Notes under the pieces: model-generated
Databases searched by the model: none
Seen by the model: only the letters and a program-made list of their open reading frames with translations
Told to the model about the DNA's origin: nothing
Translations under genes and position numbers: made by a program
From: an uncultured Dehalococcoidales bacterium
GTDB lineage: Bacteria; Chloroflexota; Dehalococcoidia; GIF9; UBA5629
Assembly: GCA_964400675.1 (NCBI GenBank)
Contig: CAYNVO010000001.1
Location: 267,919 to 331,918 of the forward strand
Direction of reading: 5' to 3'
DNA length: 64,000 nucleotides
Shown: piece after piece, positions 1 through 64,000 of the stretch
Numbering within the stretch: position 1 is the stretch's first letter
Layout: every line of letters begins with the position of its first letter

Positions 1-187
1 TGTCGATGTCTATTAAATAGTAAGATTATGACCGGTACTACTTGCTTCTTTTCAAGCAGAAGTCTAGGATGGTTATAATGAGGGTAACAATTTGGGGCCA
101 TCGTTATAACATTATCAACGCAAGATTAGCTTCAGGATCCGTAAGATCTTTTTAATGGAGTACCATTTTCCGGAGGAGTCTTAAATT

Positions 188-946
188 ATGGAATTTTTTG
201 ACCTTATGAGTATCTCACACCGCTATATGGAGATACTAAACCCTTCCACGTCTGAAAAAATCATCAAGCTTGGCACACTACTCAAATTGAAAAAAGGGGA
301 CCGGGTCATCGACTTCGGTTGTGGCTGTGCTGAGCCCCTCACTCTATGGGCTGAGGAATTTGGTATCATTGGTATTGGCATAGATATATCCGAGTATTTC
401 TGCGACCGAGCCAGGAAAAAGCTGGCCATGAGAGGATTGTCGGACCAAATCGAAATCGTTTGCTCCCCTGCGGCTGACTATGTATTTAAAGAGGGGGCTT
501 TCGATGCAGCAACATGTATTGGATCAACGTTTGTTTTTGGCGGTTATCAGCAGACGATCCAGGCAATGAAGAGGGCTGTCCATCAGAGTGGACGCCTTGG
601 TATCGGCGAAACTCATTGGCTTAGCACCCAGATACATCCAGAATATGCCCAAAAACAGACAACTACCCACACAGAAGCGGAACTAGCTCGATTTACCCGG
701 GACGAAGGCTTTGAACTCGAATACATAATCCGTGCAAGCTACGACGATTGGGACAGATACATTTCGGATGGCTGGTATGGACTGATACGTTGGCTTGAGG
801 AAAACCCTAACCACCCTGACTATGAACAAGTATTCAATCATTTTCGTATTGACCAGGATGATTATTTACAGTTCCAACATCAATATATGGGCTGGGCTAT
901 GTACTGCCTCGCTCCCATCAAATCTCATTCGACAGATAGTATATAA
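188..946 (+). CDS. Class I SAM-dependent methyltransferase
   Basis: Glycine-rich motif I VIDFGCGCAEP about 45 aa from the N-terminus; size typical of the family. Confidence 0.7.
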   Translation: MEFFDLMSISHRYMEILNPSTSEKIIKLGTLLKLKKGDRVIDFGCGCAEPLTLWAEEFGIIGIGIDISEYFCDRARKKLAMRGLSDQIEIVCSPAADYVFKEGAFDAATCIGSTFVFGGYQQTIQAMKRAVHQSGRLGIGETHWLSTQIHPEYAQKQTTTHTEAELARFTRDEGFELEYIIRASYDDWDRYISDGWYGLIRWLEENPNHPDYEQVFNHFRIDQDDYLQFQHQYMGWAMYCLAPIKSHSTDSI

Positions 947-1124
947 TGAAATTACATTTATTGATATTGTCTTTTCAGCCTGTGATACCTCGTAGAAATG
1001 CACTTAATATGAGTCAACATCAGATAATCCTAAATTCTAGTAGCTTGGGTTACGTAAGAAATAGACACTATTAAATAGCTAAGGCGAATTTCAGTTCGAA
1101 GGTTTTAATGGTTCTACCTATTGA

Positions 1125-1313
1125 TACCCCAGCTCCACCATTCAAGTCCCCTCCGTTTGATAACATCCCCAACGTAAGGCAACTTTTGAGTTACAGATAG
1201 CGTTGGGATATACCACATTGGAAATGACTAGGCGCTATACACAGGCATTAGGATTTGAGGATGTGTTTAAGAGGCATGTGGTGGCATCACCCGTGGATAG
1301 GCTGGGAAGGTAG
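1125..1313 (+). pseudogene. Tyrosine recombinase/integrase C-terminal remnant
   Basis: The frame between stops translates to ...NVRQTFELQIALGYTTLEMTRRYTQAL..., matching the integrase C-terminal box (LLGHssIstTqrYtH) including the catalytic Tyr. There is no upstream catalytic domain and no start codon. Confidence 0.45.
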
Positions 1314-1383
1314 GGTAGACCAGTAGTAGGCAATCATTTGATTTCATGATTAGGCAGGTGGACAATATCAAAGAATGCCAAGT

Positions 1384-2658
1384 CTAATTACATATCTTTG
1401 TCAACGCAGTTGTTAGTTCTGGTAATTTCCTATAAGTACTACATACTTGCCAAAGAAGTGCTAAGAGCATGTCGCTACGCCCCTGTGATTTATACATTTC
1501 CAATCTGGGTGTTATGAGTTGTGTCTCATTCAGGTCCAACTTATCAGCAGTGAACCCATTGGTAATAATGCTATTTAATACCTGTTGTATATGATTGAAT
1601 AAAATATCTGAATCGGCTTGCTTTAATTTTGCTTTGAATACGGTGAGAAACATTTTGAATATTTTCTGATATTCTTTAAGTAAGGCAAATTCAGCAGTCA
1701 ATATGATTAGCGGAATCGCAGCTTTATCACATATACTTTTCTTTGTGCTATCTCTTTTTCGCACTTCTTCACTCTCATTAGAGCTTTTGCCATAATGCCC
1801 GCCTCCGTTGTATTCTATTGCTATTTGGATGACACCGCTTTCATCGCATAGAGCAAAATCAAAATGTCCACCCCATAGTAGTTTTTTCTCGCTGTCTGTC
1901 CAATTAATACTCTGTATATCAACGAATGCCTTTATCTCTCTCCCTTGAAAACATTTAAGTGGACTGAGCCAAATTTCGCTAATTACTTTCTTGATTTGGT
2001 TTTCTTGAAAGCCAAAATTAGCTTTCTTTTTAAGTCTATTTCTTTTTTGTGCCTCTTCCTTGATTAGTTCTTCAAGCTCACGATTTCCTTCTGGTTCGAG
2101 CTTGAGTATTTTTTCTTCGATGCTAGTCATCATATCTGCTGCAGCCCATTCGTTGATTACTCTCAGATAGGCTACTTCAAATTTCGATGGGTCACGACCT
2201 TTATCATTCTTAAAGGAAGATATTTCATAGTCAATATCAGTGCACATATCCCAGAAAAGTGGAAAATACATTTCAGCTATTTTCTGCTGGAGCTTTGCAG
2301 GATAACCAGCAATCTGTAATTTGGTCAAAAATCTTAGAAAATCGATGGTAATAGATGCATGATATAGTGGATTATCAAGCCCTTGCTCTACAGGAAATAT
2401 GAGCCCTTTATTGAATAGATCGATTACTTCCTTTTCATTCAGTTTTGTGTTTGCGTATATTACCTCAATCAGCTTCTCTTTAGAGACAAGATTATCAAGG
2501 TCATCATGAAGCATTAGCCTTTCATTAGCAACCATCATGACCATATTCTTGAGAAAGTCTTCACCTTGCATAGGTTTTATACCATTATAAGCTTTCCTAA
2601 ATAACAATGTGGAAAGCCAGGGCAAAAGTTCTTCTTTCCGTCCAGTAAGCCCCACCAT
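1384..2658 (-). CDS. Hypothetical protein with a central Vsr/DUF559/DUF2726-like PD-(D/E)xK endonuclease-fold domain
   Basis: The segment HFDFALCDESGVIQIAIEYNGGGHYG...EEVRKRD...ICDKAAIPLIILT fits the Vsr/DUF559 restriction-endonuclease-like pattern. The gene is AT-rich relative to its flanks, and the remaining ~330 aa are helical and unassigned. Confidence 0.5.
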   Translation of the reverse strand: MVGLTGRKEELLPWLSTLLFRKAYNGIKPMQGEDFLKNMVMMVANERLMLHDDLDNLVSKEKLIEVIYANTKLNEKEVIDLFNKGLIFPVEQGLDNPLYHASITIDFLRFLTKLQIAGYPAKLQQKIAEMYFPLFWDMCTDIDYEISSFKNDKGRDPSKFEVAYLRVINEWAAADMMTSIEEKILKLEPEGNRELEELIKEEAQKRNRLKKKANFGFQENQIKKVISEIWLSPLKCFQGREIKAFVDIQSINWTDSEKKLLWGGHFDFALCDESGVIQIAIEYNGGGHYGKSSNESEEVRKRDSTKKSICDKAAIPLIILTAEFALLKEYQKIFKMFLTVFKAKLKQADSDILFNHIQQVLNSIITNGFTADKLDLNETQLITPRLEMYKSQGRSDMLLALLWQVCSTYRKLPELTTALTKICN

Positions 2659-2791
2659 TAAGCATAAATCATCGACTGATTACTTTTCGACTAGCCAGGA
2701 TTCCCACACACAATTAGCTATCCCATTACATCGTTTGATTGAAGGATTTCTGTTATCCTGCAAAGTAGAGAACAAGTCTTCTGCCACTGCG

Positions 2792-3007
2792 TTACTTGCT
2801 AAAAATCTTAGCATAAAGAGGAATCGCTATCACCAAAGCTACAACAAGAAATATCCACCATGTCCATATTGGCAACCATGTTGCCAGTAGCAACCCTAAT
2901 GCCACCCCAGCAAGAAACTTGACTGTTATCAATAGTAGGAGGTGACATTTTGGTAACTGTCTTAACTTTTCTATCCTCTTATCATACCAACGGACAATAC
3001 TTGCCAT
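2792..3007 (-). CDS. Small two-TM membrane protein (hypothetical)
   Basis: 71-aa ORF with two hydrophobic helices, co-oriented between the ICMT-like gene and the 424-aa gene; it overlaps a + strand ORF that looks spurious. Confidence 0.3.
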   Translation of the reverse strand: MASIVRWYDKRIEKLRQLPKCHLLLLITVKFLAGVALGLLLATWLPIWTWWIFLVVALVIAIPLYAKIFSK

Positions 3008-3308
3008 AGTATTTACCTCCTATCCCTGTTGTGAAACCATTGTACCACCTCCCAGTCAATATGCAAGGGGTTAATTGCTATGGTGAAATGTTCACCAAAT
3101 ACGAGAATCCGGGCATTAGGGAGAAGATACGCCAATCCCTCGAGTGGTTAATTTAAACCACGCAATCTCGCAGATTAGAGGTTTCAAGTGAACGAAAACT
3201 GGCCAGTGTTGTATTCAGATGGTTTGCTATTATCGGTCATATGGTCAGAAGATTAAAGCATATATGAGCAGGCAGTCCTGGATTAATATATTCAGCTTAG
3301 ACTTAACA

Positions 3309-4001
3309 TTACCAGACAAGCGGGATTAGCCGGTATTTCACTTGCCTGGCATACTCTCTATAGCCCGGCATTTCATTTTGCAGCGTGCGGTCTTCCAGAG
3401 CCGTGCGGATTACTATTATTGTTGTCGATATGCCGCTCAGCACAAAACCCCACCATGAACCTAAAATGAATGGATAGGCTAATATTGAGATGATTAAACC
3501 GGCATATCCCGGATGTCTCATTATCTTGTATGGGCCAGAGGTACAAACATATTGATTCCTATCATCCTGGATGCGGACTGTCCACTCAAATAATTTATTG
3601 ACTGCCATGGCCCAGAGCGCGAGCGGAATCACAGATACAAATATAAATATGCCTACGAAAGTTAACCAGAAAGGCATAAACGACCATTGGAATCTAACTG
3701 CATCGAACCCCATGACGACAAGGTTGCCAAGGGTTAATACGGGATAAATGGCTACCCATATCTTATCAAAGCCTTTTGTGCCTTCCTTGACAACGCTGCC
3801 GCGTTCATTCAACATCTCCGGATTCACTCTTGCCAGCACTACTGTACTTATCACCCAATAAATTGAAACCAGGCCCACGTATACCCACGCGTTTATCCAG
3901 GCAAGTGTACCCGCTGATATGAATAAGATAGCAAATCCGATGATGATAAGAATTGATTGTACAATGATTCCTCTAATGCCGAAGCGATTTAGATTGCTCA
4001 T
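3309..4001 (-). CDS. Isoprenylcysteine carboxyl methyltransferase (ICMT/PEMT) family membrane methyltransferase
   Basis: Multi-TM protein with the conserved C-terminal RHPGYAGLII...LGSWWG motif of the ICMT/phospholipid methyltransferase family. Confidence 0.6.
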   Translation of the reverse strand: MSNLNRFGIRGIIVQSILIIIGFAILFISAGTLAWINAWVYVGLVSIYWVISTVVLARVNPEMLNERGSVVKEGTKGFDKIWVAIYPVLTLGNLVVMGFDAVRFQWSFMPFWLTFVGIFIFVSVIPLALWAMAVNKLFEWTVRIQDDRNQYVCTSGPYKIMRHPGYAGLIISILAYPFILGSWWGFVLSGISTTIIVIRTALEDRTLQNEMPGYREYARQVKYRLIPLVW

Positions 4002-55555: not shown

Positions 55556-56083
55556 GTGGCAACCGTATATCTCGGTCTCGGCTCGAATCTGGGAGACAGG
55601 AAGCATAACCTGGCTCAAGCACTGGAGTTGCTGTCAAAACATGTGGTAATTGAACTGATATCCTCTGTCTATGAAACAGAGCCTTCAGGCTACAAGGAGC
55701 AGCCGCTTTTTCTTAATGCCGTGTGCCGTGTCTCTATGGGACTTAGCCCTGAGAATCTTCTGCGTCTGGCTAAGAAAATCGAGGCTGAACTGGGCAGGAC
55801 GCCCGGCTTTCCCAACGCACCCAGGCCCATCGATATAGACATACTTTTCTACGATAATCAGGTTCTAAACGATAAGGAGTTGACCATACCTCATCCCCGG
55901 CTGGTGGAGCGGGCTTTCGTGCTGGTGCCGCTGGCTGAAATCGCCCCGGACATGGTCCATCCCGTAAGTAAAAAGACCGTCAAAGAGCTGCTTGATGATT
56001 TGGGGGCTGTGACCGGCGTTAGCAAGTGGGCTGAAGCTGAGGAGCTTATGAACAGGAGGCAAGATGTATCAGGTATCTGTTGA
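55556..56083 (+). CDS. folK: 2-amino-4-hydroxy-6-hydroxymethyldihydropteridine pyrophosphokinase
   Basis: VYLGLGSNLGDR N-terminus and IDIDIL motif. GTG start at 55556 is preceded by the RBS gggaggag; the track's longer ORF overlaps folP. Confidence 0.85.
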   Translation: MATVYLGLGSNLGDRKHNLAQALELLSKHVVIELISSVYETEPSGYKEQPLFLNAVCRVSMGLSPENLLRLAKKIEAELGRTPGFPNAPRPIDIDILFYDNQVLNDKELTIPHPRLVERAFVLVPLAEIAPDMVHPVSKKTVKELLDDLGAVTGVSKWAEAEELMNRRQDVSGIC

Positions 56084-56432
56084 AGGGCATTTCGATGCCG
56101 CTCATTATCTCAGGGACTACGGCGGCAAGTGTGAAAATTTGCATGGCCATCGCTTCAAGGTGATAGTAACCTTGAAGGCTGGCAGGCTTAATGAAACCGG
56201 CCTGTCTTATGATTTCGTGGACTTGAAGCGTCATCTGAATGAGGTTCTTTCCCAATTCGACCACAACTGCATAAATGATGTGCCGCCCTTCGATAAAATC
56301 AACGCCTCTTCGGAAAATATCGCTGCCACTATTTATGACCAGCTTAAAGGTCGTTTCTCCGGCGGAGTGTCGCTGGCAAGCGTGCAGGTCTGGGAATCTC
56401 CGCAGAGCTGCGTTACCTACAGCCCTGAATAA
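56064..56432 (+). CDS. queD: 6-pyruvoyl-tetrahydropterin synthase family protein (QueD/PTPS paralog)
   Basis: CENLHGH zinc/catalytic motif and an upstream HxxH; 122 aa; overlaps folK by 20 nt. Confidence 0.8.
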   Translation: MYQVSVEGHFDAAHYLRDYGGKCENLHGHRFKVIVTLKAGRLNETGLSYDFVDLKRHLNEVLSQFDHNCINDVPPFDKINASSENIAATIYDQLKGRFSGGVSLASVQVWESPQSCVTYSPE

Positions 56433-56460
56433 TTAGTCTTTCAGGTCCGGGCTTTTACTT

Positions 56461-56640
56461 GTCACTCTGATGCCTTTCCTGTCACCCTGAAAATTTTCCT
56501 GTCACCCTGAACGCTAGTGAAGGGTCTAAAGCTTCTTCACTTGCGGAGTTTATCCTAGGCGGATGAGAGATTCTTCCCCTTCCCCTTCGCTTTCGGCTCA
56601 GGGTCAGGGTCAGAATGACAGAAGCGAAGGGCCCAGAATG
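56461..56640. repeat. Compound copy of the intergenic repeat family ([cctgtcaccctga] x3 ... right arm of inverted pair ... gtcagaatgacag)
   Basis: 56575..56632 is the reverse complement of 54553..54616; track ORFs 56482..56667 and 56718..56957 lie inside repeats. Confidence 0.7.
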
Positions 56641-56653
56641 GAAGGTAAGGTTG

Positions 56654-56845
56654 CTAAGCCTTCTCAAGGTCTGGTGGCAGCAGGTTGGGTATGTTTTCTG
56701 TGATGGGGTAGCTGTGGTTGCACTTTTTGCAGAAGAGTGAGCCGGTCACCACCTCGCCCTCTTTCTCTTCAGTTACCTTGAGCTTAAGCGAGCTTTTGCA
56801 CACCGGACAGGCTAATATGTCCATTAACTCTTTCTTCATCGGCAA
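56654..56845 (-). CDS. Trm112-family zinc-ribbon protein
   Basis: DILACPVCK...LFCKKCNHSYPI, 63 aa. Confidence 0.7.
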   Translation of the reverse strand: MPMKKELMDILACPVCKSSLKLKVTEEKEGEVVTGSLFCKKCNHSYPITENIPNLLPPDLEKA

Positions 56846-56886
56846 TTATCCTACTGCAATTCAGCCAGGCTGTCAATTTTGGTGTC

Positions 56887-56998
56887 GTGTCATTCTGAGC
56901 GCAGCGAAGAATCTTACGTTGTTCCCATCACCGAGATTGCCGCAGAGTTTACCCTGAGTGAGATTCTTCGGTCACTCCGTTTCCTTAGAATGACACGA
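56887..56998. repeat. Palindromic intergenic repeat copy (gtcattctgagcgcagcgaagaatct...gagattcttcggtcactccg...agaatgacac)
   Basis: Inverted arms seen directly; shares accgagattgccgc with other copies. Confidence 0.7.
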
Positions 56999-57062
56999 AA
57001 CTAAAGGCTAGCAATGACATTCTTCATCCCTCTTGCCTCCAGGTCGCCATTGAGTTAGACTG

Positions 57063-58673
57063 ATGGCAGTAAGGGGAAACTCTGTGGTAAAGCTGACATT
57101 TTACGGCGGCATCAATGAAATCGGCGGCAACAAGATTCTCCTGGAGGACGGAGAGCGTCGGCTGTTCCTCGATTTCGGCTTCCCCTACAAGAGTCACAAG
57201 AAATTCTACGAGGAATACCTGAAGCCCCGTGGCGGCGCCGGCTTGCTCGACCCCCTGGCGATGGGCTTGCTGCCACCGCTGGAAGGGCTTTATCGTGATG
57301 ACCTGGTAACGCCGGGGCTCTGGGAGCAGTTCCGTCATAGCTCTCTTTACCGCAAACTTGAACGGGTTGATGGCGTGCTGCTGTCCCACGCCCATCTTGA
57401 CCACTCGGGACATATCGCCTTTCTCAGGGATGACATCCCGGTCTATTCCACCGCCACTACCGCCTTTATTGCCAAGTCTGTTCAGGATTCAGGTAAGGCT
57501 GACTTCGACCAGCAGGTGTGTTATTTCGACCATAAGCAACCGGGGCGTCCCTCGAACTGGAAACAGGAGGCGCTGCTTACCGGTGACAAAAAGCAACAGC
57601 GGCAGTTCTGCCTTGCCGACGCCGAGCTAAAAGCCTTGAGCGAGGACGCCGTCAAGTTCTGGCTCAAATCTCCGGCGCAGAAGCCGCTTATCTCCTGTCC
57701 CCTGAACAGTCACAGCGGCTGTAGCTTAAATCTGCGCTGTTTTCCGGTTGACCACTCTATACCCGGCGCCTGTGCCTGGGGCATCGAGACCGGCTCCGGC
57801 TGGATTATCTACAGTGGCGACTTACGGCTGCACGGCAAGCGCGCCGAGCTTACCAGAAAATTCATCGAGGAGGCGGGCAAGCTGCGTCCCAGGGCGCTTA
57901 TCCTTGAGGGCACCAATGTGACCCGCGACAAGAATGTGCCTGAGGGCGAAGTGTATGAAAATGGTTTTAAGGTAATAAAAGATGCTGCCGGACTGGTTAT
58001 CGCCGACTTCCCGCCCCGGGATGTGAACCGCCTGCTCACTTTCTTGCAGATTGCCCGGGACACGGGCAGGAAGCTGGCTATACTGCCCAGGGACGCCTAC
58101 CTGTTAAAGGCCATGCGCCTGCTGGAGCCGGAAATTCCTGATATCGCCCGGGAGGACAGCATCGTCATATATCAGGACACCATTGCCAGCAAGAGCCCCA
58201 ACCTGTGGGTGCAGAACCTGTGCAAAGAGCACGGTAGCAAGATGGTTCTGGCTGAAGATGTGCGTTCGGCTGAGGACAAGTTTATACTCTGTTTCAGCTT
58301 CTGGGACATAAACGAGTTGCCCAGCCTTCGCCCCACGCCGGGCAGCCTGTATGTGTTCAGCTCCAGTGAGCCACACGATGAAGAGCAGGAGATCGACTTC
58401 CGCCGCCTGCATAAGTGGCTGGAGCACTTTGGGCTACGAGGCTTCGGTCTTCCAGTAGAAAAGAACGGCGAGTGGGAGATACCCGAAGCTGAGCGAGGAT
58501 TACATGCCTCCGGCCATGCCTGCGGTCCCGATTTGCTCGAGGTGGCTCGCGGAATAAAGCCCGAAGTCCTCATCCCTGTCCACAGCGAGCACCCCGATTT
58601 CTACACAGAGCACCTGGGTGGCAGCGGAATCGAGGTTATTCTCCCCACTGTAGGTGGCACAATCGAGGTGTGA
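57063..58673 (+). CDS. MBL-fold / beta-CASP ribonuclease (RNase J-like)
   Basis: N-terminal KLTFYGGINEIGGNKILLEDG...FLDFG and HAHLDHSGH (HxHxDH); 536 aa matches RNase J length. Confidence 0.6.
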   Translation: MAVRGNSVVKLTFYGGINEIGGNKILLEDGERRLFLDFGFPYKSHKKFYEEYLKPRGGAGLLDPLAMGLLPPLEGLYRDDLVTPGLWEQFRHSSLYRKLERVDGVLLSHAHLDHSGHIAFLRDDIPVYSTATTAFIAKSVQDSGKADFDQQVCYFDHKQPGRPSNWKQEALLTGDKKQQRQFCLADAELKALSEDAVKFWLKSPAQKPLISCPLNSHSGCSLNLRCFPVDHSIPGACAWGIETGSGWIIYSGDLRLHGKRAELTRKFIEEAGKLRPRALILEGTNVTRDKNVPEGEVYENGFKVIKDAAGLVIADFPPRDVNRLLTFLQIARDTGRKLAILPRDAYLLKAMRLLEPEIPDIAREDSIVIYQDTIASKSPNLWVQNLCKEHGSKMVLAEDVRSAEDKFILCFSFWDINELPSLRPTPGSLYVFSSSEPHDEEQEIDFRRLHKWLEHFGLRGFGLPVEKNGEWEIPEAERGLHASGHACGPDLLEVARGIKPEVLIPVHSEHPDFYTEHLGGSGIEVILPTVGGTIEV

Positions 58674-58773
58674 TATCCGGAACACAGCTTTCAGCCGTTC
58701 TTAGTGTTTCTTGTTCTAAATGTTACTGCGATAATGTTTTACGTTTTCTCTGACCAGGTAAACAAAATCTATA

Positions 58774-59361
58774 CTATCCTACACCCCTGGCGTGCATTCT
58801 TGCCATGTATTTATTGAACATTCTTTGCTTACGCTCTTCTTCAACTTTTCCTTTGCAGATTTGTCTGAGCCGATTGCACTCTTTCAGTGTACTCCAATCC
58901 ATAGCAATTTTTTGCTCTTCCTTATATACTTCCAAAGCCCCCGATTGGAAACGCTGTAAATAACTCTTTTGTTTTGGTAGTACTATTATGACTTTCTTTC
59001 TATAATTTGGAAAAGGTGCAATTATTTCAAGCTCTCTATACACTCCTCCTTGACGAGTTGGGCTCGCAAGTACAAGTGCTATTACTAGGTCTGCAGTATC
59101 CACGTGGGTTAATTCTGCATAACCGAGCTCAATAGAAGTGCTAGACTGAAGTCTGAACAATTCTTCACATGTACGTACTTCGTCTTTTTCCTCCTTTTCC
59201 CGAGATAGTTCTTTTAATGCATCTATTAGATTAGTTCTCTTTGTAAGCCATTCTTCATTACCAGTCTCTCCAGGCCCTAACACTAATACTCTAAGGTCTA
59301 CCCAAAGGTCATTAAGTAGCTCGGAAGATTCAGTAGACCAAGAAGAACCACCGCTTGTCAT
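58774..59361 (-). CDS. Hypothetical protein C of a three-gene operon; SLOG/LOG/NDT-like Rossmannoid signature
   Basis: RVLVLGPGETG early strand and ...LVIALVLASPTRQGGVYRELEIIAP, reminiscent of the PGGxGTxxE (LOG) / DSGTAFELG (nucleoside 2-deoxyribosyltransferase) motifs; AT-rich. Confidence 0.45.
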   Translation of the reverse strand: MTSGGSSWSTESSELLNDLWVDLRVLVLGPGETGNEEWLTKRTNLIDALKELSREKEEKDEVRTCEELFRLQSSTSIELGYAELTHVDTADLVIALVLASPTRQGGVYRELEIIAPFPNYRKKVIIVLPKQKSYLQRFQSGALEVYKEEQKIAMDWSTLKECNRLRQICKGKVEEERKQRMFNKYMARMHARGVG

Positions 59362-59366
59362 TATTT

Positions 59367-59870
59367 CTATATTATCGCTTCCTTTGATATTGCTTTAAGT
59401 TTGTTCAGATCAGCCAAGGCAGCCTGACCTTCTGGGGTAATCCTAAGTGTTGAGTCTAATACCTGCAAATAGTCGGCCCTTACCAAAAGAGCAATCTTAA
59501 GCCAATACCTATACTCGCCGATATGATCAGCTAGTTGGTCCACTCCAAAATATTCTTTCTCAGTGAATAGTTCCAAAAACCTTAGGCAATCACTGTCCAT
59601 TAAAGCATTTGCTTTTGCGTGTTGGTTTCTTATGGAATCTTCGTCCTCTTCATGACCTCGGAGAAGGCCACTTTTATCTTCTTTCTCAGTGATCTCTTTT
59701 GGTGATGATGCGGTACCGAAGTCAACATATCCTATTGTGATGTCTTCTTCACTCGGACTTACCCAAGATACTCCAGTTATACCTTCCTTTTCCTCCCAAC
59801 TAATTTGTTCGGGTTGTCGTTCAGGTAAATCAGTCTGATAACTATCTTTTAATCGAACTATTCTAGCCAT
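59367..59870 (-). CDS. Hypothetical protein B of a three-gene operon (acidic N-region, C-terminal winged-helix-like)
   Basis: 6-nt gap to gene C, 8-nt overlap with gene A; no recognisable catalytic motif. Confidence 0.4.
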   Translation of the reverse strand: MARIVRLKDSYQTDLPERQPEQISWEEKEGITGVSWVSPSEEDITIGYVDFGTASSPKEITEKEDKSGLLRGHEEDEDSIRNQHAKANALMDSDCLRFLELFTEKEYFGVDQLADHIGEYRYWLKIALLVRADYLQVLDSTLRITPEGQAALADLNKLKAISKEAII

Positions 59871-60588
59871 CGATTTCCTCCAATAAGCGTGCTCCTATTT
59901 TCCCCAGCATTTCGTACTCTATGTCCGCTGCTGACTTCAAAAATCCAGCTGTTTCATTCCTTGATATAGTATTTGGCTCTTCCCTTCTCCAATATACGTC
60001 TACATCAAAAAGTAATCCGTCGGACGGATAATCTACCGGATCCTTGGGTTCCCTTAATAGTCTTATATTGTTCATACGTAAGACCCCAATGTACTTTTTG
60101 ATCGGGAAACGAACTGCATATTCTATCCCTACATCCTCTTTCTTCTCTACTTCTGCGATTATATCTTGAAGTAATACCCCAGAAATTATCTTTGCTAGTG
60201 ACGTTGATGATTTAACAATGTTTTCTGTTTCCACAAAGAATTGAGACCGCAGTCCTAGGGTCCTGAAATTCTTCACCTCAATATCTTTTGCGATTCCAGT
60301 AATCCATTCAGGTGCAGTATCGACAACGTGGGTCAATGAATCTATAAGAGCATAACGCAACCATATCGTGTCAGCTGAGAATCTGATTTCGTAGGGATCT
60401 GCATCTTCCCTCCTTTGACTTAATAGACAACCCCCTGGGTCTATGTTGTGTTGTTTGTAGAATTGCCCAATTCTATTTAGTGTCAATCCTGCTGAATCCA
60501 AGTAACGGTAACCTTTTACTGTCTTTGCTTGTGTAAAAGCCTGGTGCAAAGTCCATTTTTTCTTTCCATTTCTCGCTGTCTTTTCCAT
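59863..60588 (-). CDS. Hypothetical protein A of a three-gene operon
   Basis: 241 aa, first gene of an AT-rich operon; no recognisable motif. Confidence 0.4.
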   Translation of the reverse strand: MEKTARNGKKKWTLHQAFTQAKTVKGYRYLDSAGLTLNRIGQFYKQHNIDPGGCLLSQRREDADPYEIRFSADTIWLRYALIDSLTHVVDTAPEWITGIAKDIEVKNFRTLGLRSQFFVETENIVKSSTSLAKIISGVLLQDIIAEVEKKEDVGIEYAVRFPIKKYIGVLRMNNIRLLREPKDPVDYPSDGLLFDVDVYWRREEPNTISRNETAGFLKSAADIEYEMLGKIGARLLEEIDG

Positions 60589-60608
60589 GTCTCAAAAACC
60601 TCGCCTTA

Positions 60609-60640
60609 GTATTTTACGTTATGAAATTACTCTTGGACAA
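60609..60640 (-). promoter_or_regulatory. Candidate sigma70-like promoter for the three-gene operon (TTGTCC - 18 nt - TAAAAT)
   Basis: Minus strand reads ttgtccaagagtaatttcataacgtaaaatac about 20 nt upstream of ATG 60588, with an aaggcgagg RBS-like leader. Confidence 0.25.
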
Positions 60641-60811
60641 CGTAATATTGACATAAATATACACAAACAAACTAATTATAACACGATTGGTATTATTCTA
60701 ACATGACCTATATATAGGAAGGAAGTTTCTGGGCATTCTTATCTATTGAGCAAGCAGCTCAAGGCACGCCAAGCAGAAATGGTTAGTGAGTCTTGAGACT
60801 TGGGTCGTACC

Positions 60812-61669
60812 CTATGCCAGCTTTATATCCGAGCTGGTTTTGGCTTCCTTGATGAATTGGAGCAGTATGCTGCTGCGCAGGTCGTTTCGGCTCTCAAGCG
60901 GGGCGACGAACTTGCCTTTAATCCAGATGTGCTGCGGTTCGACGAAAACGAGCACGCGGGGACCGCTCATGGCTTCATCGAGGAACCGGGGGTAGCCGTC
61001 CTGGAAGACCTGTTCCGCCTGCTTTACATAAACTTCGTCCTGACTCTTGAGTATGCTCTCCAGAAGCTGGCTCGCCTTGTCCACGTTGCTGTCGGTGGTC
61101 AGGGGGATGCGTACCTCGTCGAACATGTAGTCAGATGAGATAGCTTCCAGACCTGTCGAGTAGTCCTTGGAGTAGTTCAGTACCGGCTGGTCGAGTATTA
61201 TGAGGTTGGGTACATATAGCAGCCTGCCGGTGAGCTCGCCGCCCAGCTTCTCGTCTTCCCCGACCTCTTCGAGCGTGGTGTGAAGCAGTCCTATGTGCCT
61301 GACGTCGCCTTTTGTGTTGCCGATGCGGATTCTATCTCCCAAATCATAGATTTTGGAGAAGGTGATGACAAAGAAAGCGAAAAAGCAGGCGATGTATTTC
61401 TGTAGAGCCAATGCCAGCGCTATGGCGATAATAGGCACATACATGGCTATTTTAGGTACATATATGGCTGCCAGTATGGTAATGGCGACGAATATGGCAA
61501 CGGCGGTGCAGGTGAGTATGGTTGTGATGAGGTTCGTGTTGCGCCGCTGCGCCTCGGCTTTAAGCGCGTTAACCTTGGCGGTGCGCCGGCTGATATCGGC
61601 AGGGGGACGCCCGATTTCTGTGGTTGGGTCACTGCGACTTTTTTGCGTCGAGCGTTTGCTTTTAGTCAT
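60812..61669 (-). CDS. Mechanosensitive ion channel (MscS family)
   Basis: Three TM helices followed by the MscS beta-domain block ...DLGDRIRIGNTKGDVRHIGLLHTTLEE.... Confidence 0.7.
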   Translation of the reverse strand: MTKSKRSTQKSRSDPTTEIGRPPADISRRTAKVNALKAEAQRRNTNLITTILTCTAVAIFVAITILAAIYVPKIAMYVPIIAIALALALQKYIACFFAFFVITFSKIYDLGDRIRIGNTKGDVRHIGLLHTTLEEVGEDEKLGGELTGRLLYVPNLIILDQPVLNYSKDYSTGLEAISSDYMFDEVRIPLTTDSNVDKASQLLESILKSQDEVYVKQAEQVFQDGYPRFLDEAMSGPRVLVFVEPQHIWIKGKFVAPLESRNDLRSSILLQFIKEAKTSSDIKLA

Positions 61670-61826
61670 TTTTGCTCAGTGCTCTGGCTAGATAATAGAG
61701 GTGGGAGGGGGTGACCCTCCCATTTTTAGTGTGTTTAATTATAGGTGTTTTGGGGTCATCTGGTCAAGGCAGTGTGCCATTTTGTCATCGCGAGGGGCGT
61801 AGCCTCGTGGCGATCTCATGTTATGT

Positions 61827-62270
61827 CCTGTCATTCTGAGCGTAGCGAAGAATCTCATGTCTTCTCTGCTACCGAGGTTGCCACGTGGAGTTTACCCTGA
61901 GCGAGATTCTTCGGTCACTCCGTTCCCTCAGAATGACAGGAAGGGCGCTCAGAATGACAGGGGCGAAAGGTTCAGTTCCTTCGACGGGCTCAGGATGAGC
62001 GGGGATGATAGGTAGATTCTTCGACAAGCTCAGAATGACAGGAAGGGTGCTCAGAATGACAGGAAGGGCGCTCAGAATGACAGGGGCGAAGGGTTCAGTT
62101 CCTTCGACGGGCTCAGGATGAGCGGGGATGATAGGTAGATTCTTCGACAAGCTCAGAATGACAGGAAGGGTGCTCAGAATGACATGAAGGGTGTTCAGAA
62201 TGACAGGGGCGAAGGACTCAGTTCCTTCGACAGGCTCAGGATGAGCGGGGGTAACAGGCAGGATGAGCGG
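61827..62270. repeat. Compound array of the palindromic repeat family: one full palindromic element then ~2.5 tandem copies of a ~121-bp unit
   Basis: The ~121-bp unit contains gctcagaatgacagg[a/g]agggc sub-repeats and gctcaggatgagcgg. Track ORFs 61818..62015 and 61869..62150 are repeat artefacts. Confidence 0.8.
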
Positions 62271-62280
62271 TAAGAAGGGT

Positions 62281-63390
62281 TCATAGAGCCAGTGCCAGGT
62301 TCAGGTATAGCTGGGCTGCCTGCACCACCTGCTGGAAGGGGACCGACTCTTCGGGCGTGTGGGCGGCTTCCAGACGGCCGGGACCAAGCACGATTGGGTC
62401 TACACCGGCAGCCCAGAGCACGCTGCCATCGGAGTGGCTCCTGAAGTCCTGCGGTTCCCAGGGTAAAGACATCTTGTTGTACGTTTCCTTCAGCTTACCT
62501 ATCAGTGGTCTCTCTTCGGAAATGCGGTATCCGGCATGTGTGTCCTCGAATTTTAGTCGGGCGTTTAAGCCGTTGATGCTGCCGCCGGCTGTCTTTACCA
62601 GCTGCTCCAGCTCTGTTTTAAGCACTTCGAGCCTGGAGTTAGGCGGCAGATGCAGGTCAAGCCATGCCTCGCAGGCGTCCGGCACGACAAAGCCGCCGGG
62701 GAAGCCCGAAAGCTCCCTGATGTTGTAGACCAGGCCGTGTGGTGCCGGGGTGGCGTACTCCGTGATTTGCAGCAGCAGCTTGAGCATGGTTTCAATGGCA
62801 TTTTGTCCCAGCTCCGGCATTGAGGAGTGGGCTTTTTTCCCCTCGGTGCGCAGCAGAATCTCCATGTAACCGTAGTGGCCAAGACAGGGTATCAGGCTGG
62901 TGGGCTCGCCAATCACCGCCCAGGGGAAGCTGTATTCCTGCATCAATGCCTTGGCACCGCTGCTGTCTTCCTCCTCGCCGACCACCAGAGCCAGTCCTGC
63001 CGGCGGGAAAGCCTTTTTGCTGCCGGTCAGGGCAATGAAGGCTTCCATCATGGCGGCGCAGCCGGCTTTCATATCTGTGGTTCCCAGACCGAATATAGTG
63101 CCGTCTTCCTCATGGAAACCGAAATCTTCGAGGTCGTGGGCGGTAATGGTATCGAGATGTCCCACGAAGCAAAGCTCTACCTCGTATTTGCCTTCGGGAA
63201 AGGCGATCAGGTTAAAGCGGCTCTCGTCGACCTCCTGCTTGCTTACCGCTATGCCGTGCTTCTCGAGGTATTCCCCGGCAAAGTCGACGATTTCCTCCTC
63301 TTTGCCCGACGGACTGTATATGTCCACCAGCTCTCGGAGAAGCCTTTTCAGCCTTTGTGGGTTTATATTCATTGGCTTATTATGCTTCAT
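62281..63390 (-). CDS. M20 family metallopeptidase (ArgE/DapE-like deacylase)
   Basis: IYSPSGKEEEI, GHLDTI, GTTDMKAG, GEEEDSSGA (M20 metal-binding motifs). Start ATG 63390 overlaps the upstream GNAT stop (ATGAAGCATAA); the track's longer ORF would overlap GNAT by 137 nt. Confidence 0.8.
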   Translation of the reverse strand: MKHNKPMNINPQRLKRLLRELVDIYSPSGKEEEIVDFAGEYLEKHGIAVSKQEVDESRFNLIAFPEGKYEVELCFVGHLDTITAHDLEDFGFHEEDGTIFGLGTTDMKAGCAAMMEAFIALTGSKKAFPPAGLALVVGEEEDSSGAKALMQEYSFPWAVIGEPTSLIPCLGHYGYMEILLRTEGKKAHSSMPELGQNAIETMLKLLLQITEYATPAPHGLVYNIRELSGFPGGFVVPDACEAWLDLHLPPNSRLEVLKTELEQLVKTAGGSINGLNARLKFEDTHAGYRISEERPLIGKLKETYNKMSLPWEPQDFRSHSDGSVLWAAGVDPIVLGPGRLEAAHTPEESVPFQQVVQAAQLYLNLALAL

Positions 63391-63925
63391 GCGCTTTTGA
63401 GGAGTTATCGGACCTGTTGTTTTCTTTGTTGGGTCGGCGAATGGTCTTTGCCAGCCACACGTGCTGGCTGCTACGGGAGAAGCCAAGTGTCTTGAAGAAG
63501 GCGATAGCCGGCTCATTCTCGGCGTCGGTATCGGCGATTATCATCCTGACGCCTTCTTTGCGCAGCCTCTGTTCTAACCTTTTGTAAAGTCTGATGCCCA
63601 GATTGGTTCTCTGAAAGTCTTCAGCCACACCTATCCAGCTCAGGTACCCGTATTTCTTCCAGGCGGTGCCTTCTTTCTCAATGGTAGTGCCTATTATAAA
63701 GCCGACGATTTTTCCATCCGGTTCGGTCTCGGCAACCAGGCAATATTCGGGGTCGGAGGTGAAATAATCGGTTACCTCATACTGGTCCCAGGTGCGGTAC
63801 AGGATGGGGAACTCCTCGCTGGTGAAGAGCTCCTCTCCCAGGTGATAAACGGCGCTGATATCATCTATCTCCATCTGGCGGATGTTCGTTTCGATTTTCT
63901 TTTTTCTAGGCTTCTCCGATGGCAT
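63380..63925 (-). CDS. GNAT family N-acetyltransferase (RimI-like)
   Basis: ...GFIIGTT...WIGVAEDFQRTNLGIRLYKRLE acetyl-CoA-binding region; strong RBS ggaggt 7 nt upstream. Confidence 0.8.
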   Translation of the reverse strand: MPSEKPRKKKIETNIRQMEIDDISAVYHLGEELFTSEEFPILYRTWDQYEVTDYFTSDPEYCLVAETEPDGKIVGFIIGTTIEKEGTAWKKYGYLSWIGVAEDFQRTNLGIRLYKRLEQRLRKEGVRMIIADTDAENEPAIAFFKTLGFSRSSQHVWLAKTIRRPNKENNRSDNSSKAHEA

Positions 63926-64000
63926 TTATACCTCCGTGTTTATTTAAAGATGGTTGAGTCTTTCGTGATAGTTTGGGATTGGCCCTTTATTATATTGCAG

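Follow-up and report, generated by a model that had tools for sequence, protein, structure and literature searches.

The stretch of 64,000 nucleotides analysed here (the window) comes from an uncultured Dehalococcoidales bacterium of the Chloroflexota and carries on its minus strand a compact operon of three genes, which we call A, B and C. We consider it probable that this trio was acquired horizontally and is an antiphage cassette with a promoter of its own, which belongs to a rare, unnamed family and is situated in a Chloroflexota defence hotspot. An earlier note on this DNA had described the operon as having the appearance of an antiphage defence cassette. That description gains support from the known systems held in the same slot by relatives and from the company the trio keeps as it moves, which includes integrases, restriction-modification (RM) and toxin-antitoxin (TA) genes and a DUF4062 gene. 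Missing from the earlier note were the hotspot nature of the slot and a link between protein C and the effectors of retrons.

The trio and its surroundings are as follows (positions in the window; the profile libraries used throughout were Pfam 2025, NCBIfam 2026, PHROGs v4 and PADLOC v2):

57063-58673, plus strand: RNase J-like metallo-beta-lactamase/RMMBL gene (Pfam Lactamase_B/RMMBL); left boundary, a core gene outside the cassette.
58674-60810: variable cargo islet of 2,137 bp between the stop codons of the two convergent core genes.
58774-59361, minus strand: gene C, 195 aa; predicted TIR/nucleoside 2-deoxyribosyltransferase (NDT)-fold Rossmannoid domain followed by a long basic C-terminal helix.
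59367-59870, minus strand: gene B, 167 aa; overlaps A by 8 nt and ends 5 nt before C.
59863-60588, minus strand: gene A, 241 aa; predicted standalone pseudo-duplicated beta-alpha-beta4-alpha protein.
60611-60640, minus strand: putative sigma-70-like promoter (TTGTCC-18-TAAAAT, from a consensus scan), ~22 nt upstream of the A start codon.
60675-60683, minus strand: TGTTATAAT, an extended -10-like box of putative function, found ~90 nt upstream of A in most trio loci.
60812-61669, minus strand: MscS-type mechanosensitive channel gene (Pfam MS_channel_2nd, E = 3e-10); right boundary, a core gene outside the cassette.

The three minus-strand open reading frames of 241, 167 and 195 aa with their 8-nt overlap were all confirmed, and the RNase J-like and MscS identities given earlier to the flanking genes were upheld by these Pfam matches; members of the RNase J-like cluster, which come from Chloroflexota metagenome-assembled genomes (MAGs), are annotated as ribonuclease J or exonuclease. 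The tight junction between B and C also stands, although its spacer measures 5 nt rather than the 6 nt first reported.

The islet is of foreign origin and was inserted between core genes, and the trio in it was recently acquired by horizontal transfer. Nucleotide homology (blastn) with nine relatives ends at 58673, the stop codon of the RNase J-like gene, and restarts at 60811, the stop codon of the MscS gene, or at 60751/60761 in two of the nine. The same break points are seen in the closest relative, which is 94-97% identical to the window in its flanks. Because homology is broken at both stop codons, the cargo was delimited as 58674-60810. Base composition changes over the same interval: GC is 0.39-0.42 across 58600-60800 compared with 0.52-0.58 in the flanks, the islet as a whole (0.398) lies at z = -2.86 relative to all other 2.1-kb windows, and GC at third codon positions is 0.31-0.38 in genes A, B and C compared with 0.65-0.69 in the flanking genes. 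The earlier note, which had called for such a measurement of GC and codon usage, gave ~43% GC against ~55% in the flanks; the deviation is real and the islet figure slightly lower than that. The islet is not the sole low-GC stretch of the window, positions 1-4000 being equally AT-rich. As for flanking direct repeats or att sites, the sole candidate was a 14-nt repeat in two copies, 86% identical, near the two islet ends (58732-58745, TAATGTTTTACGTT; 60607-60620, TAGTATTTTACGTT); it may be an insertion remnant and is equally compatible with chance, and it was not accepted as an att site.

We compared the slot across 80 metagenomic loci carrying an RNase J-like orthologue 71-96% identical to that of the window. 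A, B and C were encoded in none of the 80, in keeping with the earlier view of a foreign islet between core genes. In 20 of them the RNase J-like gene is still followed by the MscS gene, and the slot is taken by other cargo; the interval between the two genes measures 554 to 4,060 bp, and in most of these loci its GC is below the locus average. Cargo recognised in the slot of related strains comprises the following:

Locus L034: type II-A retron with split effector, consisting of an NDT, a 102-aa winged helix-turn-helix (wHTH) protein and a reverse transcriptase (RT) (PADLOC NDT_II-A, 7e-27; RT, 1e-79).
Locus L050: GmrSD / HEC-06.
Locus L046: HEC-01/AriA-like ATPase with DUF4276.
Locus L036: Mrr-like protein with PDC-S46 (E = 2.6e-262).
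Locus L017: Radical-SAM protein with a DndB/DpdB-like protein.

Because related loci hold known defence systems at this position, the RNase J-MscS slot is a lineage-wide defence hotspot, and the trio thus resides in a variable slot that in related genomes is occupied by such systems. A hotspot in uncultured Chloroflexota that is bounded by the RNase J-like and MscS stop codons can be mined for more unknown cargo. Unannotated proteins from the slot, among loci L017-L071, are candidates for additional defence genes of unknown kind: a zinc-ribbon protein of ~1,289 aa in L019, L031 and L056 (at a high GC of 0.60) and single proteins of 572 aa (L018), 254 aa (L021), 315 aa (L037), 377 aa (L039), 198 aa (L071) and 411 aa (L038). 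The slot of L033 is nearly empty (554 bp). The retron of L034 (L034:4154-6216) encodes a 197-aa NDT, then the separate 102-aa wHTH protein and then a 334-aa RT whose best matches are the PADLOC RT_III-A and RT_II-A models. Rfam recognised no msr/msd RNA in this retron, for which the 145-nt gap before the RT gene and the ~260 nt upstream of the NDT gene are candidate places.

The trio behaves as one unit wherever it is found. In a collection of 5.8 billion proteins C had 24 homologous clusters and A had 20, none of them named or assigned a Pfam domain, and an exhaustive search of 1.84 billion proteins with the A profile returned 167 representatives, all of them standalone proteins of ~215-260 aa. 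Among ~185,000 species-representative genomes the trio was present at three loci, two of which are from Chloroflexota. The A-B-C unit was recovered from no fewer than 12 unrelated contexts, with identities as low as ~20%, and 12 loci, four trios at ~20-28% identity among them, agree in gene order, gene size and close spacing (junctions of -26 to +18 nt). Three of the most distant A members on long contigs (~20% identity) are followed by homologues of B (E = 3e-7 to 1e-4, hmmsearch) and C (E = 5e-32 to 3e-14) in the same order, and the arrangement is likewise kept in a Chloroflexia MAG (L015). In the one unsaturated pair dN/dS (the ratio of nonsynonymous to synonymous substitution rates) was 0.35-0.47, and in the remaining pairs the proportion of nonsynonymous differences was far below that of synonymous ones. 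A, B and C are real genes under purifying selection and form an obligate linked module. The module also appears to travel with its own promoter, a TTGACA-N17-TATAAT-like site being found upstream of A in most other trio loci at a place equivalent to that of the putative promoter of the window.

The genomic neighbours of the trio are in part those of mobile and conflict genes, as the earlier note had suggested looking for. In L005 the trio adjoins ResIII, N6_N4 methylase, HicA and MazEF genes; in L006 and L097 it comes directly after a tyrosine recombinase gene, with another such gene nearby in L012; in L101 it stands beside a DUF4062 gene and a Macro gene, and in L103 beside a Toprim/AAA_25 gene. 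DUF4062 proteins have recently been characterised as a family of defence NADases that are TIR-like (10.64898/2026.05.01.722283). These neighbours also bear on a different explanation, namely that the trio is no dedicated antiphage system but a toxin-antitoxin or addiction module by which small integrative elements are stabilised, with C as the toxin and A and/or B as antitoxin and autorepressor. The upstream integrases and the TA genes adjoining the L005 trio would fit such a module, as would the tight coupling of the genes and the presence of a probable wHTH protein, B, that could autoregulate the conserved promoter. However, the copy in the window is accompanied by neither an integrase nor other element genes and stands alone in a slot of bona fide defence systems, and a minimal TA pair needs fewer than three co-evolving components. 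We regard an addiction module as unlikely. It overlaps mechanistically with an antiphage role and the two are not exclusive, since many abortive-infection systems are TA-like.

Protein C is the candidate effector and very probably a member of the TIR/NDT N-glycosidase superfamily. Its AlphaFold model (pLDDT, the predicted local distance difference test, 89.2) consists of a β/α domain of five strands and, after it, a long C-terminal helix, with a flavodoxin-like Rossmannoid fold and the putative nucleophile Glu after strand 3. Across 29 family sequences, distant trios included, G29-P30-G31, K41, R42, E66, E83, G106, E110, K123, P129 and C162 are invariant. Searched against solved structures, the C family profile found one group at E < 0.01, the effector of the retrons Ec86/St85: residues 28-186 of the Ec86 effector match the profile at E = 0.0039 and are collinear with C residues 21-189. 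In this alignment the invariant Glu110 of C (…QGGVYRELE…) falls on Ec86 effector Glu106, a position that is Ala in the deposited variant 8qbl. Glu106 has been equated with the catalytic Glu98 of Lactobacillus NDT, in an effector built of an NDT-like lobe and a wHTH lobe, the activation of which is reported to deplete adenine, adenosine and deoxyadenosine (10.1101/2023.08.16.553469). The NDT of the L034 retron also aligned with C (E = 7.8e-4, hhalign).

No model in Pfam, NCBIfam, PHROG or PADLOC was significant for C. In Pfam no family, and no NDT model, reached E <= 0.1, the best being DUF6679 at E = 0.13. The PADLOC NDT_II-A models were also silent on C, which places it outside those clusters as a distant relative. 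On account of the retron effector match, the conserved Glu and the lack of any library model reaching significance, C very probably represents a new TIR/NDT superfamily branch whose nearest neighbours are the effectors of type II retrons. This bears out the NDT-like character proposed in the earlier note for the last protein of the operon; the motifs quoted there are present, and 'GPGE' and the Glu of 'GGVYRELE' proved invariant family-wide. The SLOG/LOG affinity proposed alongside it had to be dropped, as C did not show the PGGxGTxxE motif together with a LOG/SLOG model match. A DUF4062 identity was also rejected, there being no match with every filter off and none to the neighbouring DUF4062 protein.

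Structural comparison of C returned TIR, NDT and MilB folds, with MilB and DNPH1 among the best matches. MilB is a CMP/hydroxymethyl-CMP hydrolase, and the match raises the alternative that the defence is not abortive: C would hydrolyse phage-type modified nucleotides (5-hydroxymethyl-dCMP/-dUMP), as MilB and DNPH1 do, so that phages with hypermodified DNA would be starved and the host spared. The occurrence of GmrSD, which targets modified DNA, in the same slot of a related strain is in line with this alternative. However, TIR domains score as high as MilB and DNPH1 against C or higher, and the closest sequence relative of C is a retron effector reported to act on adenine derivatives. We give a modified-nucleotide hydrolase little credence.

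Two further loci contain proteins of related interest. A genuine LOG/SLOG-family gene (Pfam Lysine_decarbox with LDcluster4), unrelated to C, lies ~8 kb from the trio at L001:2094-2789, in the same genome neighbourhood and outside the window or at its edge. An Acidobacteria MAG (L016, 6824-12365) encodes a distant C-like NDT/TIR-fold protein of 237 aa that overlaps the end of a D12 adenine methylase gene and is followed by a 996-aa wHTH, protein-kinase and ORC/CDC6-like ATPase protein; a 363-aa protein of the same locus has faint Csa3_N/HFX_2341-like matches. The arrangement is typical of conflict systems, and this is apparently another undescribed one with the same effector family.

Protein B evolves faster than A and C, and word-based searches found three homologues of it, yet an orthologue stands between A and C in every trio examined. 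Its N-terminal half is predicted to be disordered: the first ~80 aa are variable and of low complexity, with a net charge of -4 to -12 in the core clade, and carry two short conserved motifs, Y-x-T-[DE]-[IL]-P-E and D-x-G-T-x-x-S. The C-terminal ~85 aa are conserved, with invariant D, L, W, L, T and G residues, and probably form a winged helix-turn-helix. The earlier note had seen a winged-helix-like segment here, and matches in register with such domains do exist, although none is significant (PF24409, 'wHTH-PRTase associated', E = 0.18; Csa3 and MarR, E ~1.1-1.3). We also considered that B might be the detached wHTH of a retron effector. Homology was not detectable, with E = 0.35 against the L034 wHTH and no Ec86 effector chain at E <= 10 when B profiles were searched against the PDB, and the resemblance is one of analogy only.

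Protein A is predicted to contain a sheet resembling that of TBP, guanido-kinase and AdoMetDC, a fold unlike the palm and fingers of a polymerase. Among 66 family members, down to 17% identity, G26, G34, R114, D195 and D197 are invariant and Q20, D31, W76, R110 and G112 nearly so; the conserved Arg and the strand-borne DxD may form a site for ligand binding or catalysis. Searches of Pfam, PDB sequences and PADLOC gave no match for A. The model TIGR04255, which describes proteins of comparable size and sporadic distribution, gave 17.8 bits (E = 0.0023) against A, short of its curated cut-off of 30 bits; A and 10 of the 66 family members showed weak collinear matches to it over the C-terminal half (best E = 4e-5), with all scores under that cut-off. 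Judged by these scores, any relationship of A to TIGR04255 would be a remote one. TIGR04255 has no known function, so the link tells nothing about mechanism, and a literature search found no paper on the family. With a compact, well-predicted fold, an invariant Arg/DxD and no characterised relative, A is a candidate new sensor or enzyme.

From these comparisons we infer a defence function for the trio, a toxic activity and substrate for C and roles for A and B, along the following lines. C would be the effector, a TIR/NDT-superfamily N-glycosidase with Glu110 as its catalytic residue. Once released, it would split the bond between base and sugar in an essential nucleotide or cofactor, with NAD+ or adenine nucleotides/nucleosides as candidate substrates by analogy with the Ec86 effector, and growth of the infected cell would halt in an abortive infection. 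A and B, which co-evolve with C and are coupled to it in translation, would hold C inactive and link it to an infection cue. In B, a possible adaptor, the probable winged helix would tether to nucleic acid or autoregulate the operon, and the short motifs of the disordered acidic arm would serve for docking. In A, a sensor or regulator and possibly an enzyme, the conserved Arg/DxD pocket on the TBP-like sheet would sense or process the trigger, so that A would fill the role that the RT and multicopy single-stranded DNA (msDNA) module has in type II retrons. These specific roles of A and B are speculative, and we hold them doubtful at best.

There is no reverse transcriptase in the trio locus: neither RVT_1 nor a PADLOC RT model matched A, B or C, while the same tools found the L034 RT at 1e-79. 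A hidden non-coding RNA or msDNA template was looked for without success: Rfam had no match in 56000-64000 and no conserved non-coding block was found upstream or downstream across trio loci; the Rfam result alone is weak evidence, because Rfam also missed the RNA of the genuine L034 retron. Retrons are modular, and some of their effector modules were taken from RT-less systems, such as Septu for type I-A (PMC7736814), so the trio may be an RT-less counterpart of the type II retron effector. It is conceivable, if rather doubtful, that the trio is a new abortive-infection family which stands to the type II retron effector module as an RT-independent ancestor or sibling and in which A senses the trigger through its Arg/DxD. 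We would propose with similar reserve that, in such a counterpart, the A site makes or binds a nucleotide-derived signal or nucleic acid and controls C through the wHTH adaptor B.

Several observations weigh against an antiphage cassette. No known defence model matches any trio member: PADLOC-DB v2 gave no match for the window proteins at E <= 1 and, among 66 A-family and 23 C-family members, none save one chance PglZ match (E = 0.003), so that the trio maps to no named system in Pfam or PADLOC, just as the earlier note could name none. The significance of the match between C and the retron NDT is marginal (E = 0.004 and 8e-4), the top 50-60 structural matches of C do not include the Ec86 effector, and the B wHTH is sub-threshold with undetectable homology to those of Ec86 and L034. 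The trio was not found on viral contigs (C profile) or plasmids (tblastn). The hotspot also holds cargo without a defence look, a nitrilase-like gene and membrane proteins, and some trios sit in housekeeping contexts, beside dnaN and a nitroreductase gene in L009 and beside a sigma factor gene in L015 and L098. Such neighbours would suit an accessory metabolic or regulatory operon that was transferred incidentally, for example a nucleoside salvage NDT with a transcription factor, and classical NDTs are indeed salvage enzymes. However, the trio is not accompanied by other genes of salvage, none of the Pfam NDT models matches C, and A bears no metabolic signature; the family is also extremely rare and sporadic, sits in a hotspot and adjoins integrases. 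An incidental salvage operon is very improbable, and an antiphage cassette remains the explanation we favour.

Other features of the window lie apart from the trio. Positions 1-4000 (GC 0.38-0.41) may be another foreign islet. They include a 424-aa minus-strand open reading frame (1384-2658) with a C-terminal part, containing GGHFDFALCDESGVIQIAIEYNGGGHYG, that may be a restriction-endonuclease-like/DUF2726-type domain, and a 230-aa multi-pass membrane protein (3309-4001, minus strand), the N-terminus of which by eye resembles hotspot-cargo membrane proteins of relatives (L029:8778-9506, L046:6425-7297 and L050:7362-8165). The latter are often paired with a membrane protein of ~147 aa, and the pair may be a mobile two-gene membrane module. 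Short interspersed repeats occur at 56880-57000 and 61780-62260, with translations reading '…VILSAAKNL…' or '…PVILS…PEPVEGTEPFAPVILS…' and tandem copies at 61884-62250. Found on both sides of the region and in related loci, where they give many 28-120-nt blastn matches at non-homologous positions, they are REP-like (repetitive extragenic palindromic) intergenic repeats typical of the lineage.

Among known systems, the superfamily of C is used by retrons, Thoeris, CBASS and Swarozyc for nucleotide or NAD+ depletion. The nearest comparison is with type II-A retrons (Retron-Eco1/Ec86, Sen2/St85), whose effector has an N-terminal NDT-like domain and a C-terminal winged HTH. That NDT is the closest sequence relative of C among solved structures and is collinear with it over ~160 residues including the linker helix; a probable wHTH is likewise encoded in the trio operon, and a retron of this type with split NDT and wHTH fills the same slot in a related strain. 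Split NDT/wHTH variants of retrons (II-A2) are known (PMC7736814). Unlike these retrons, the trio has no RT and no recognisable msr/msd RNA, its third partner is the unrelated 241-aa A, and its wHTH is on a separate protein with a long disordered arm whose gene lies upstream of the NDT gene. A literature search found no RT-less system of NDT, wHTH and an A-type protein. A precedent for the relationship is Septu (PtuAB), an RT-less module whose effector proteins are also found joined to a retron RT-ncRNA (non-coding RNA) cassette in type I-A retrons (PMC7736814). The trio could relate to type II retrons as Septu does to type I-A retrons, although the proteins are unrelated (ATPase and HNH in Septu; NDT, wHTH and A in the trio). 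If the trio is a working defence, it would show that type II retron effector chemistry can operate without an RT, in parallel to Septu and type I-A retrons, and would inform how retrons arose from pre-existing modules. Multidomain NADases of the TIR, DUF4062 (Swarozyc, Evangelion) and SARM1 types differ from C, a short standalone domain that needs two dedicated partners and matches neither the Pfam TIR nor the DUF4062 models. Compared with the NDT/DNPH1/MilB group (Pfam clan Nribosyltransf), C shows 8-20% identity and matches no Pfam model; unlike in classical NDTs, the Asp/Tyr residues were not identified in C, and the genomic setting is of the conflict rather than the salvage type. As a working defence, the trio would add a new architecture to the growing class of immune modules in which cleavage of nucleotides or NAD+ kills or starves the infected cell (TIR, SIR2, DUF4062, retron NDT): its effector chemistry and overall logic are of a known kind, and its architecture and protein A are new.

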